DNA from: Neodothiora populina
Lineage: Eukaryota
Direction: 5' to 3'
DNA: 64,000 nt
Assembly: GCF_041146345.1 (NCBI RefSeq)
Contig: NW_027191414.1
Coordinates: 1-64,000, forward strand
In this document: positions 29,413 through 37,942 of the stretch, one piece after another
Layout of the letters: every line of letters starts with the position of its first letter
How positions within the stretch are numbered: position 1 is the stretch's first letter
Notes under the pieces: model-generated
Database searches by the model: none
The model's input: only the letters and a program-made list of their open reading frames with translations
What the model was told of the DNA's origin: nothing
Program-made: the position numbers and the translations under genes

Positions 29413-31067
29413 TCAGATCAGACGCTCAACGTGGTCCATCGCCGAATCTTCTCCCTTGCCCTTCTCGAGAACCTCATCGGTAGTCCTATGAATGACACGC
29501 TCATCCTTGACTTGTCTTATCGCCTCGTCATACGACATGTTGCTGCCTGCAGCATGTTTAGTCTCAAAAACTCGATCAATCTCGTCGAGAGATAGTCCAG
29601 CTGTCTCAACATAAAAGATCCAGATGAAGGGAAGCCATGCGAGATTCAATACGGCGAAAATGATGTAGAACTTGTAACCCAGACTCTTGATTCCTGCCTA
29701 AAGGTCAGCTTGGAATGCCAAGACGTGCAGATGCACCAAAATATACCTGGCGGGGTGATTGAGACTACGGTATACACGAACACCCAGTTGGTGATCATCG
29801 CAATCGCACTACCAATGTTTCGGGATCGGTTGGAGTTGATCTCAGAAGGATACATGAAGGGTATGGCCAAGAACGAAAGCCCCTGTAGATCATCAAGGTC
29901 AGCACAATACCGATAACGAGATAGGGTCATCGCAGAGATACTCACGAAGAAGAAGTAGTAGATGAAGATGAACGCAACTGCTACACCGTTGGCTGCTTTG
30001 CCCCCGACACCAAGTCCGATCGCTGCGACAGTAAAGCAGAGGGACTGGCCTGCAGCACCAAAAAGCATCAGCTTCTTTCGACCGACTCTTTCGATGACAA
30101 ATGTGGCCATGGCTGCCCAGAACATCCACTGCATCGAGTCCACTGCGGACAAGATAAGGGACATTCGAGTGCTAAATCCAAAGGACCGCTCGAGCACAAC
30201 TGGTAAATAGTATGCAACGACATTTACACCACCCATTTGTTGCATGAAGTTTGCTCCAGCACCAAGGCAGATACGTCGGAAAGTCTGCTGCTCTTTGTTG
30301 GAGAAAACCTCCCGCCAGCCTATCTCTCCGGTGGCCTTCTCGTGATCGATGGTGTCTTTGATGACTTGCAAGGCCTCGACTACGGCGGGATGGTCCGCTG
30401 GCTTCGCGAATAGTCGAGCTAGTGCCTGTCTAGCTTCTTCGTTGCGATTTACCAAGCACAGCCATCTCGGAGACTCGACTGTGAGAGGTAGTATGGATGC
30501 TGTGCCGATGGCAAGGACGCATTGGAAACCAAGAGGAAAGCGCCAGCTCACTTCATTGTGGGTGACGTAGGTAAATCCGAAATTCATCCAGTTGGTAAGC
30601 ACAAAACCGAATACAAGGAGAGTCAGCTGGGTTGCGACTAGGATACCGCGAAGCCTGGGCTTGCATGTCTCACTCTGCCACATAGGGATGGTGGTTGTGT
30701 TCATGCCGATTCCAAAGCCGGACACAATACGACCGACCATCATATGAGGTAGGGAATATGCAGTAGCCTGTAGTAATCCACCAACTGTGAGGAACACGCT
30801 GGCTAGAGCGATGCATCGTCGTCTTCCAAGTTTATCACCGATGAACAGTGCCAGGACTGCTCCGACTATGCAGCCTAGTGTGTACACAGACACAATCTGG
30901 CCTTGTATGGTGGCATTGGGGTTGTTGAATCGCGCCAGAAGGGAGGGGTTCGATAGTAGACCACCGAACACGCCTTGGTCATATCCAAAGAGCATGAAAC
31001 CAAGACCGCACGCAAGAGTCGTGCCAATGGTCAGCGAGCGACCTTGCAGTTGAGGAACGAGACCCAT
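29413..31067 (-). CDS. Sugar-porter MFS transporter, Stl1-like polyol/sugar:H+ symporter; introns 29883-29945, 29694-29746
   Basis: 'FMLFGYDQGVFGG', 'GDKLGRRR', 'IPMWQSE...RG', 'SWRFP', 'ESPRWL', 'FMQQMGGVNVVAYY', 'ERVGRK', 'YPSEIN', 'VETAGLSLDEID'. Confidence 0.92.
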
Positions 31068-31328
31068 GGTTAGGCTGTTCTAGATACCGGAGTGGGACAC
31101 TTGTTTTCGGTATGTATGTAAGGTGAACGATTCGCACCAAGTCGAGGTAAATCGTGTCAGCGATGGTGAGCTTGATGACAAGTAATTATATATCGCATCC
31201 CTATGCAAAAGCAATAGGGTTATCTCGGAAGTCTTGGGCTAGTCGGTGGTGCGTATATGGAGCATATACCCGCTAATCGAGGCCACGTGCCACATAAGAC
31301 CCAGTAGATCAACGGCAAAGTGTGTCTT

Positions 31329-31361
31329 CTCCAGGTTTTCTCCGCATCCCCCCACCCCCAG
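31329..31361. promoter_or_regulatory. Four CreA/Cre1 consensus sites (SYGGRG) in 33 bp upstream of the sugar porter
   Basis: CTCCAG 31329, CTCCGC 31340, CCCCAC 31350 and CCCCAG 31356 are all reverse complements of SYGGRG. Confidence 0.55.
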
Positions 31362-35719: not shown

Positions 35720-36196
35720 TCTCCTGATGTATGTCGGGGATCATCACAATAATTCTGCTGAGTCGCTTCAAACAATGTAGCTGCTAGTAGTGCTGCTTTA
35801 GGGTGGGATATCAAATAAAAAATACATCATCAGTTTCATCCGTTCACGTGGACCCCGCAACTAATGCCAAAACTCATCATGAGACCGTATTGCGCATCTG
35901 TAGACAAATCCATCGACATGACCTGACCAGAGCTTGCAACACCGAGTCCACAGCCGTAGCCTTGCTTGATTGTCCCATCGGAAGAGCCGGCGATGTTGAC
36001 ATTACCCCGCCTGTCGGAAGCTGTATCAAGGGTAGATCGCTTCCCACAATTGGAATGGTATTGGTTTCCCCGCATGTACATATAGCCATCCCTCATGTCT
36101 ATATACCCGAGCGTATATGATGAAGGCCTCTTCTTGCACTACTTATAAATTCATCGACTGTTTTTCTCATCTGTAGCAGCAACACTATACTCAATA

Positions 36197-37942
36197 ATGG
36201 CCGAGCAATTGATTGATGCATTGATCGTGGGCGCTGGCTTCGGCGGCGTCTACCAGCTGAAAAAGCTACGAGATCAAGGATTATCCGTCAAAACAATTGA
36301 TACAGCGAGCGATGTTGGAGGTACCTGGTTTTGGAATCGTTATCCGGGTGCGATGTCAGAGTAGGTCCATATCGAGAGGGCATCAACCATAACTTTTCTA
36401 ACGTCATTCAGTACGGAAGCCTACCTCTATAGATACTCATGGGATCTCGATGACTTGAGAACATATCCATGGGATGAACATTATCTGCAAGGCCCCGAAA
36501 TCCTACAGTACCTTATGCATGTTGTCGAGCGTTATGATTTACGAAAAGACATGTTATTCGAAACCGAACTTCAGACTGCAACGTGGGACAACTTGGAGAA
36601 CCGTTGGATTGTTCAGACCAACAATGGAACATTCAAAGCTCGCTATCTAGTAACCGCACTTGGCCTCCTCTCCAGATGCAACCTGCCAGACATACCGGGC
36701 ATAAATGATTTCGCCGGAGAGCTCTATCATACGGCCAGATGGCCCGCCTCTGCCAGTATGACTGGTAAGAGAGTCGGCGTCATCGGCAACGGCTCCACTG
36801 GCATTCAAGTCATTACCGCCCTGGGCAAGGAAGTCAAACAGCTGATCAGTTTCCAACGCAATCCTCAATACAGCGTCCCCAGTGGCAATAGGCCAGTCTC
36901 ACCAGAATACCGGGATTATGTCAACGAGAACTACGAGGAGATCTGGCGGAAGGCAAAGGATGAAAGTCTGTTCGCCTTTGGATTCTCAGAAGTGACCCGG
37001 CCGACTTCCAGCGTGAGTCCAGAAGAACGCGAGCGGATCTACGAGGAGGCATGGCAAAAGGGCGGAGGCTTTCGGTTCATGTTTGAGACTTTCGGCGACA
37101 TATCCCTTGACGAGAATGCCAACAATCTCGCTTCAGACTTCATCAAGAGGAAGATCTCACACATCGTCAAGGATCCAGAGAAGGCGCGGAAACTCATGCC
37201 GACCCAACTCTATGCCCGTAGACCGCTATGCGATGGTGGATACTATCAACAATTCAACAGAGACAACGTGGACGTCGTCAATCTGAAAGAGACTCCAATA
37301 ACTAGGATCACTTCCAAGGGCATCAGCACGTCCGATGGCAAGGAACATGAACTAGATGTCGTTATTCTCGCCACAGGATTCGATGCGGTCGATGGTAACT
37401 ATACTAGAATCGCGATCAAGGGGCGTCATGGCACATCGCTCAAAGAACACTGGGCCTCTCAAGGACCCTCGTCAACCTTGGGAGTCAGCGTGCCTGGCTT
37501 TCCAAACCTGTTCATGATCACAGGCCCCAACAGCCCTTTCTCCAACATTCCCCCGGCAATCGAGACGCACGTCGAGTTCATCTCAGACATTATCGAAGTC
37601 GCGGAGAAGAGATACCGCGCAAAGTCTAGCAGCATCGAAGTGACTGATGGAGTCAACATGGGATTGAGTAACGGTCATATATCTAGGAAAGATAGCGTTA
37701 ACGAACACAAACGTTCAGGACCAATCATCGAAGCCACACCCGAGTCCGAGCAAGCCTGGTCCAAGGTGTGCGATGATATGAGTGCCGATAGCTTGTTTCG
37801 GAAGACGGATTCGTGGATCTTCGGCTCCAATGTTGCTGGCAAGAAGCCATCAGTACTTTTCTTCTTTGGAGGACTGTCGGCCTACCGCAAGATTCTGAGA
37901 GACGTGGCTGCAGATGGATATCAAGGTTTCAACCCATTTTGA
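36197..37942 (+). CDS. Type I Baeyer-Villiger monooxygenase (cyclohexanone monooxygenase-like); intron 36361-36411
   Basis: Exon 1 '[11 protein letters not shown]...[17 protein letters not shown]', BVMO fingerprint '[12 protein letters not shown]', second Rossmann motif 'VIGNGSTG', 'ILATGFD', 'FPNLF...GPNSP', '[10 protein letters not shown]'. Confidence 0.95.

Follow-up and report, generated by a model that had tools for sequence, protein, structure and literature searches.

The 64,000-nucleotide stretch of Neodothiora populina DNA analysed here (contig NW_027191414.1, positions 1 to 64,000; hereafter the window) carries four contiguous genes for a sugar-porter family transporter, a zinc-dependent medium-chain dehydrogenase/reductase (MDR) of the (R,R)-butanediol dehydrogenase (BDH) type, a Zn2Cys6 transcription factor (TF) and a Baeyer-Villiger monooxygenase (BVMO) that is Type I and of the cyclohexanone-monooxygenase (CHMO) type (Table 1). 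In models built on the window DNA, all four genes were open and stop-free after splicing, and the TF and MDR genes are divergent with 519 bp between them. The MDR and BVMO models have the lengths of the N. populina proteins P0121 (370 aa) and P0241 (564 aa), to which they were 100% identical across the queried exons in a database search. An earlier note, made from the sequence by eye, had described four contiguous intact genes with the TF divergent from the dehydrogenase, and these models confirm both statements. The one sequencing run compared with the window spanned an intron in unspliced form; it is probably from DNA and so does not bear on expression. N. populina is described as the aspen running-canker fungus (PMC8032200).

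Table 1 Features of the N. populina cluster, of related metagenome loci (L numbers) and of six named fungal genomes
Feature	Position or gene numbers	Strand	Details
Sugar-porter family transporter	29413..31067	-	3 exons, 512 aa; introns 29883-29945, 29694-29746; spliced model
Zn-MDR dehydrogenase, (R,R)-butanediol dehydrogenase type, AAFC00_005666	31825..32995	-	2 exons, 370 aa; intron 32867-32924
Zn2Cys6 TF	33515..35719	+	intronless, 734 aa; six cysteines intact
Type I BVMO, CHMO type, AAFC00_005667	36197..37942	+	2 exons, 564 aa; intron 36361-36411
CGGGTATAT, candidate TF site	31264..31272	-	about 200 bp upstream of porter ATG
CGGCTATAT, candidate TF site	33120..33128	-	divergent MDR/TF promoter; about 125 bp upstream of MDR ATG
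CGGGTATAT, candidate TF site	36101..36109	-	about 90 bp upstream of BVMO ATG
TGGCTATAT, near copy of the BVMO-promoter site	36080-36088		
Lentithecium genes	BVMO KAF2687383, MDR 385, TF 386		
Neocucurbitaria genes	BVMO 054790, MDR 054810, TF 054820		
Lophiotrema genes	TF KAF2120989, MDR 990, BVMO 997		
Cladophialophora bantiana genes	TF KIW87278, BVMO 281, MDR 285		
Capronia coronata genes	MDR EXJ94478 (A1O1_02874), BVMO 480, TF A1O1_02878		
Phialocephala genes	TF CZR69685, BVMO 687, MDR 690		
Uncharacterised cupin	L001:7844-8691, L004:2492-3139, L005:4824-5471, L010:396-1049		about 215 aa; upstream of TF
Atypical NAD-binding short-chain dehydrogenase/reductase (epimerase-like)	L001:476-1558, L005:1-174, L012:17239-17763, L013:3635-4786		
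Fungal AHL-lactonase-type metallo-hydrolase	L015:3027-4021		divergent from semialdehyde dehydrogenase, cluster motif between

Profile scans matched the transporter to PF00083 (E 1.6e-77) and to TIGR00879, which assigns it to the sugar porters at the level of the family and not as a polyol-specific carrier. The TF carries PF00172 and PF04082 domains (Pfam), and its database relatives go under automatically assigned names, CTF1/AmdR among them. Among solved structures, the MDR matched the (R,R)-butanediol dehydrogenase 6ie0 best, at 208 bits versus 130 for sorbitol dehydrogenase. When conservation was tested, the MDR was found to keep C41, H75, E76 and E166, the GHE motif and an acidic E214; we take the first four to be the zinc ligands and E214 to be the acidic residue of NAD-type enzymes. 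The label of butanediol-dehydrogenase-like MDR given in the earlier note thus stands at the level of enzyme type, and activity on 2,3-butanediol or cyclic vicinal diols is a candidate function. Identity to ChnD-type proteins was 22-28%. No NCBIfam model reached its cut-off for the MDR, the top match being the scyllo-inosose dehydrogenase IolM at 183 bits against a cut-off of 450. A second BDH-like paralogue of N. populina, AAFC00_006511 (P0218), is 50% identical to the MDR and lies on another contig and on a different branch of the MDR tree.

Type I BVMOs are defined by an FxGxxxHTxxW fingerprint and two GxGxxG Rossmann motifs. Both GxGxxG motifs are present in the window BVMO, as is the fingerprint (F155-x-G157...H161-T162-x-x-W165). 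The protein scored 574 bits to CHMO versus about 345 to the phenylacetone and steroid monooxygenases (PAMO/STMO) and is 52% identical to bacterial ChnB-type proteins. Residues L140, L141, F244, F275, F431, W523 and F538 are those of the Rhodococcus ChnB-type protein, while S432 and I434 are conservative changes in the pocket, and the CHMO pocket positions were retained in nearly all of the 120 fungal relatives listed. The fungal BVMOs formed one clade separate from the bacterial enzymes in a FastTree phylogeny of 55 rows. The window BVMO has no end resembling a type 1 peroxisomal targeting signal (PTS1), a feature of 4 of the 120 listed relatives. By its fingerprint, scores and pocket the enzyme is assigned to Type I and to the CHMO type, for which the putative activity would be NADPH/O2-dependent oxidation of cyclohexanone or 2-hydroxycyclohexanone. 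A scan of bacterial genomes with the BVMO returned only four distant loci (43-46%), none with a BDH-like neighbor.

The conservation of the cluster was examined in database searches with the TF, MDR and BVMO, from which the best 120 of 165, 395 and 3518 matches, respectively, were compared. Matches on contigs of identical size served as a proxy that indicates the same contig, not adjacency. Among the matches listed, at least 18 TF/MDR pairs, at least 19 TF/BVMO pairs and at least 14 MDR/BVMO pairs shared a contig, and all three genes did so in at least nine cases, compared to fewer than 0.3 expected in a jitter control. One of the 14 MDR/BVMO pairs is the window's own contig, and one TF/BVMO pair (3563 bp, different sources) is probably due to chance and was omitted from the tree labels. 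By accessions or locus tags, the three genes lie within eight gene numbers of each other in six named fungal genomes (Table 1). In Fusarium oxysporum, F. lateritium, Vermiconidia, Exophiala bonariae, C. chaetospira and Phialophora, the TF is separated from the BVMO by one to three gene numbers, and in Aspergillus fischeri the accessions of the TF and MDR differ by 17. Distances among the TFs track those among the BVMOs (rho 0.69, 19 pairs) and the MDRs (rho 0.75, 18 pairs), and neither value was reached in 2000 permutations; since a shared species history would produce the same correlation, this co-phylogeny is not independent support.

Related loci were also sought in metagenomes with a TF alignment, which gave 18 loci, of which L002, L006, L007 and L016 were duplicates, leaving 14 (8 of them shorter than 10 kb). 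Gene content was determined by tblastn and by family scans of 317 open reading frames (ORFs) of at least 92 aa from 12 loci. All four genes were present within about 9 kb in L012, and three of the four in L009. Among the 14 loci, a BVMO was found in five (one cut by a contig edge), the porter in three, a BDH-like MDR in two and the complete set only in L012. The porter orthologues stand beside the TF in L001, L009 and L012, with 54-93% segment identity. With the gene-number adjacency in six genomes and the same-contig pairs, the four-gene locus bears out co-conservation, and the cluster is a conserved fungal catabolic module. A chance neighborhood of four common gene families is scarcely credible: each of the families has many fungal members and CreA-type sites are near chance level, but the idea is refuted by adjacency in six genomes of at least two fungal classes, by L012 and by the promoter motif that the loci share.

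This motif emerged from a k-mer comparison of 23 upstream regions, which singled out CGGCTATAT; the same word was again top-ranked when the window was left out of discovery (8 of 20 promoters). In the form CGG[CG]TATAT, for which the C/G option at position 4 was chosen with the window in view, it occurs five times in the window against 0.50 expected, a count reached in none of 100 shuffles. Each of the three cluster promoters, in whose 1753 bp 0.04 would be expected, holds one copy, and the remaining two fall inside the coding sequence of unrelated genes. The looser CGGNTA[TA]AT was observed three times in the three promoters against 0.14 expected and was found in 12 of 20 orthologous promoters. 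Over the 159,435 bases of the 14 other loci, 12 of 14 strict copies stand upstream of a BVMO, ligase, cupin/MFS (major facilitator superfamily) or TF gene or of a pair of genes for an aldehyde dehydrogenase and a lactonase. Typical of Zn2Cys6 sites is a CGG triplet that has an AT-rich tail and may lie in either orientation, and XlnR and AraR bind similar words. The motif, CGGNTATAT, is therefore probably the site of the cluster TF, although a general regulator may bind it instead. A TATA box is an unlikely reading, as the motif is found in both orientations, and CCTCGG, which we take to be the FarA/FarB-type site, was rejected as a shared word (3 of 23 promoters versus a 22% background). The earlier note had also pointed to CreA sites in all three promoter regions. 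Their presence holds, with 10 copies of the CreA-type SYGGRG in the 1753 bp versus about 5 expected, but 337 of 412 intergenic 550-bp segments carry at least one, so a site in every promoter is near chance and these sites weigh little.

The related loci also carry partner genes that bear on the substrate and the product. Among the 14 loci, an acyl-CoA ligase was found in four, a cupin in four, an atypical short-chain dehydrogenase/reductase (SDR) in four and an acetoin-reductase-like SDR in three; one locus (L015) has a succinate-semialdehyde-type dehydrogenase together with an AHL-lactonase-type protein. The acetoin-reductase-like SDR adjoins the TF in L008, L017 and L018. Two unrelated families of vicinal-diol dehydrogenase, this SDR and the BDH-like MDR, are thus found beside the same TF family, which favors a diol as the substrate. 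The partner ligases resemble 4-coumarate:CoA and long-chain ligases, and all four end in a PTS1-like tripeptide. The Penicillium ligase AclA is described as activating adipate for beta-oxidation (PMC7348727) and is a possible parallel. The partner aldehyde dehydrogenase of L015 scored best as a succinate-semialdehyde type. The ligase (four loci) and the semialdehyde dehydrogenase (one locus) point to a longer acid product and fit a C6 diacid. In L004, the ligase gene start that lies behind a motif copy (7000-7663) runs into AT-rich, stop-filled DNA, which suggests a decayed copy or an assembly edge. A low-complexity ORF common to L003, L014 and L015 was rejected as a cluster member.

These observations separate two parts of the diol-cleavage idea put forward in the earlier note. 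A diol substrate gains support from co-conservation, the shared motif and the two diol-dehydrogenase families, while the example given there, cleavage of 2,3-butanediol via acetoin to acetate and acetaldehyde, loses it. Such an acyclic route would suit an MDR that matches (R,R)-butanediol dehydrogenase best among solved structures and the acetoin-reductase-like SDR beside the TF in three loci, one of which (L017) also has a GPR1/FUN34 acetate-transporter-family gene and another of which (L008) has a TF among the rows nearest to the window TF, with weak support in the tree. CHMOs, however, prefer ring ketones, and the BVMO pocket is of CHMO type; the partner ligase looks like a 4-coumarate or long-chain ligase bearing a PTS1 signal, not like acetyl-CoA synthetase, and the partner aldehyde dehydrogenase is best scored as a succinate-semialdehyde type. 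A cyclic diol is therefore likelier than 2,3-butanediol, and we consider the acyclic route improbable.

The cupin and the atypical SDR raise the question of a more decorated ring, such as a deoxy-inositol, a plant cyclitol or a terpene diol (e.g., limonene-1,2-diol), which would be handled by the same chemistry with these two proteins as accessories. Residues H74, H76, E91 and H125 are invariant in the cupin, a His/Glu set typical of a metal site, and the motif precedes its gene in three of four loci; no Pfam family passed for it, it had no match on the plasmids, and an Atlas search returned unnamed and cupin clusters only. The recurrence of both proteins in four loci each, a transporter of the sugar-porter family and IolM as the top, though far sub-threshold, NCBIfam match of the MDR would all agree with such a substrate, and Rhodococcus DCL14 is described as running a diol/hydroxyketone/BVMO route on limonene-1,2-diol (PMC4097962). 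Against this, the pocket has the hydrophobic residue set of CHMOs, the scanned loci showed neither a P450 nor an epoxide hydrolase, and neither the cupin nor the atypical SDR is present in the window. A decorated ring is thus a quite unlikely substrate.

The earlier note rested in part on the absence of an esterase or lactonase from the window, and this was upheld by three approaches. No esterase, lactonase or alpha/beta-hydrolase was found by Pfam among 216 stop-to-stop pieces of at least 75 aa plus BVMO exon 1, where the sole 'Hydrolase' match came from a P-type ATPase through its HAD domain. The same was true of 149 of the 179 smaller pieces (40-74 aa) taken from parts without annotation that lie between 19.3 and 49.4 kb. 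A lactonase hidden Markov model (HMM) run on 1654 six-frame window pieces of at least 25 aa gave a best E of only 0.34, and tblastn with three bacterial caprolactone-hydrolase (ChnC-type) queries matched nothing in the window and nothing in any of the 18 fungal loci. The lactonase HMM was positive for one of these 18 loci, L015. Its lactonase has a metallo-beta-lactamase fold, unlike the alpha/beta-hydrolases of the bacterial ChnC type, and relatives occur in Aspergillus, Fusarium and Cladosporium; none of three relatives checked by accession was tied to a cluster. L015 has no MDR or porter within 10 kb, and its TF and BVMO group with those of F. oxysporum, apart from those of the window, in the trees. 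A lactonase was present in none of three long MDR-bearing stretches (the window, L001 and L012, the last of which ends at a contig edge) and in one of two long BVMO loci without an MDR. Multi-exon esterases with short exons may have escaped the scan of the related loci. An alpha/beta-hydrolase in L011 was rejected as a cluster member: another gene separates it from the ligase, and there is no motif upstream of it within the locus.

The L015 lactonase bears most directly on an ordinary lactone route, in which a cyclic mono-alcohol (cyclohexanol, a terpenoid or similar) would be oxidized to the ketone and then to a stable lactone, to be opened by an unlinked lactonase or a general esterase, the window having lost the lactonase gene or never having clustered it. 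The nearest solved relatives of the BVMO are CHMOs, an alpha/beta-hydrolase adjoins the monooxygenase in all three bacterial plasmid clusters compared below, the L015 lactonase is marked by the motif, and gene content varies so strongly among the loci that an absent gene says little. Other observations run counter to this route. The dehydrogenase is BDH-like and not of the bacterial ChnA/ChnD type, a second diol-type family stands by the TF in three loci, and a polar diol would be a likelier cargo for a sugar porter than a mono-alcohol that can permeate membranes. In addition, the lactonase was found in 1 of 18 loci, within a TF and BVMO sister clade that lacks the MDR and porter within 10 kb. 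We judge the lactone route to be on balance unlikely, while giving it serious weight.

The reading we favor, at a probability of roughly one half, is that the module takes up and cleaves a vicinal diol of a six-membered ring, cyclohexane-1,2-diol or a substituted relative. The TF would bind CGGNTATAT in the cluster promoters and switch on uptake and oxidation of the diol. The porter would import it, the NAD-dependent BDH-type enzyme would oxidize one hydroxyl to give a 2-hydroxyketone, and the CHMO-type enzyme would insert oxygen beside the carbinol carbon. The resulting hemiacetal lactone would open by itself to an oxo-acid (6-oxohexanoate from the parent diol), and under this proposal no lactonase would be needed because of that spontaneous opening. 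In the bacterial vicinal-diol routes, the lactone formed by Baeyer-Villiger oxidation of the alpha-hydroxyketone opens spontaneously. Spontaneous lactone breakdown is stated for camphor and cineole intermediates (PMC4097962). A semialdehyde dehydrogenase and a peroxisomal acyl-CoA ligase would then pass the diacid to beta-oxidation; the genes for this last step are clustered in some fungi and presumably lie elsewhere in the N. populina genome. At the same even odds, the four-gene set would be the compact version of a catabolic module, old and co-regulated, that belongs to filamentous ascomycetes. The earlier description of the route as self-contained was overstated, given the acyl-CoA ligase and semialdehyde dehydrogenase that related loci add.

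Several observations weigh against cyclic-diol cleavage as the function of the module. The MDR, at about 38% identity to bacterial BDH, is too distant for specificity to be transferred, and positions in its pocket region differ from those of the bacterial enzyme (e.g., H290 versus W). L001 has the porter, MDR and TF and no BVMO within 10 kb of the TF, and the motif is absent from 8 of 20 orthologous promoters, including both porter promoters. L015 combines the TF, BVMO, ligase, semialdehyde dehydrogenase and lactonase, and at least one branch of this BVMO family seems to make a stable lactone. The hydrolase pattern is based on very few loci, many of them short, and the one to six genes that intervene within the cluster in the six named genomes could include hydrolases.

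A natural source of such a diol is suggested by the host, as white poplar is described as holding trans-1,2-cyclohexanediol and a 2-hydroxycyclohexyl glucoside (PMC6571762). It is plausible that this diol is a substrate for N. populina; it cannot be the general substrate of the module, since many of the fungi that carry the cluster have no known connection with poplar, a further point against our reading. More speculatively, and with odds we regard as rather poor, a widespread and previously undescribed ascomycete regulon, having a Zn2Cys6 factor of its own with CGGNTATAT as the binding site, might be the native setting of fungal CHMOs. Its diol form would need two enzymes but no hydrolase to turn cyclohexane-1,2-diol into adipate semialdehyde, and the aspen pathogen would use it on cyclohexanediol that poplar phenolic glycosides release.

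The surroundings of the cluster were also inspected. Directly beside the BVMO, at 38328-42811, an MFS gene of the anion:cation-symporter type and a second Zn2Cys6 factor (zinc-cluster exon at 40623-40814) are arranged divergently, with no cluster motif upstream of the pair, which appears to be a separate unit. This MFS gene (38328-39994) was rejected as a cluster member, being 25-31% identical to the MFS genes of related loci and having no motif upstream, and so was an upstream POT transporter, which was unmatched in the 18 related loci. A third Zn2Cys6 factor, at 44014-46674, resembles by eye what we take to be the type of the xylanolytic regulator XlnR. A weak match to the NPP1 necrosis-inducing protein family at 22484-22627 on the minus strand (E 0.0019, under the cut-off) sits in a 7.5-kb stretch without other gene matches and is possibly chance or a relic. 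A small cysteine-rich ORF at 13778-14338 on the plus strand has an apparent signal peptide and is Pfam-negative.

The physiological substrates of BVMOs have been described as widely unknown (PMC4498894). The cluster gives fungal CHMO-like enzymes a conserved gene context, a candidate regulator with a candidate binding site and a shortlist of substrates, making their native role directly testable. If the interpretation is right, fungal CHMOs gain a natural job, and the diol route in particular would take fungi from a cyclic diol to a precursor of adipate with two enzymes and would link tree chemistry with fungal nutrition; the surprise is limited by the fact that this ring-cleavage chemistry is already known from bacteria. 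No description of the cluster or of the A. niger region An12g065/066 was found in a literature search whose coverage excluded most subscription journals.

Among characterized fungal enzymes, CHMO-like biocatalysts such as AFL706 are described as converting cyclohexanone to caprolactone (PMC10649493). They have been characterized as biocatalysts and probably belong to the same broad BVMO group as the window enzyme. The limonene BVMOs of Grosmannia clavigera, CMQ_6956 and CMQ_7007 (PMC8120277, PMC12628601), compared here by description, are similar in that fungal BVMOs catabolize or detoxify a cyclic compound of the host; they differ in being given as peroxisomal, while the window BVMO lacks a PTS1-like end. 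As to limonene-activating partners, neither the window nor the scanned loci yielded a P450 or an epoxide hydrolase, and no Grosmannia protein was named among the BVMO matches listed (best 120 of 3518). By this comparison the window cluster does not resemble the Grosmannia system.

The bacterial chn-type clusters compared here lie on plasmids of Polaromonas JS666, Rhodococcus DN22 and Pseudomonas kurunegalensis, and the Chn labels on their genes are our assumption. Like the window cluster, they combine a CHMO-type monooxygenase (52% identity, pocket kept), an upstream dehydrogenase step and a local regulator, and their semialdehyde dehydrogenase and CoA activation have counterparts in some fungal loci. 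In contrast, an alpha/beta-hydrolase, an SDR and a ChnD-type zinc enzyme occur in all three bacterial clusters and none of them in the window, which has instead a BDH-type MDR, a sugar porter and a Zn2Cys6 factor, its BVMO belonging to the separate fungal clade. Judged by gene content, the window cluster is not a chn cluster.

The (R,R)-2,3-butanediol dehydrogenase BdhA of Bacillus, represented by the best match 6ie0 and by a plasmid bdhA, is in the same MDR subfamily as the window enzyme and shares its zinc ligands and NAD-type residue, but the two are only about 38% identical and substitutions near the pocket are family-wide. The oxidation of trans-cyclohexane-1,2-diol in Acinetobacter reportedly follows the same order of steps as proposed here (Davey and Trudgill 1977). 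B. subtilis BdhA is described as converting cyclic vicinal diols to alpha-hydroxy ketones (PMC6099261, PMC10037340), and in Rhodococcus erythropolis DCL14 limonene-1,2-diol is described as being processed by a diol dehydrogenase, followed by Baeyer-Villiger oxidation of the alpha-hydroxyketone (PMC4097962). As far as these bacterial vicinal-diol routes can be likened by description, the order of dehydrogenase and BVMO is the same and the bacterial dehydrogenases are different. The N. populina cluster apparently represents a fungal variant, in a previously undescribed module, of the ring cleavage by dehydrogenase and Baeyer-Villiger monooxygenase known from bacteria.

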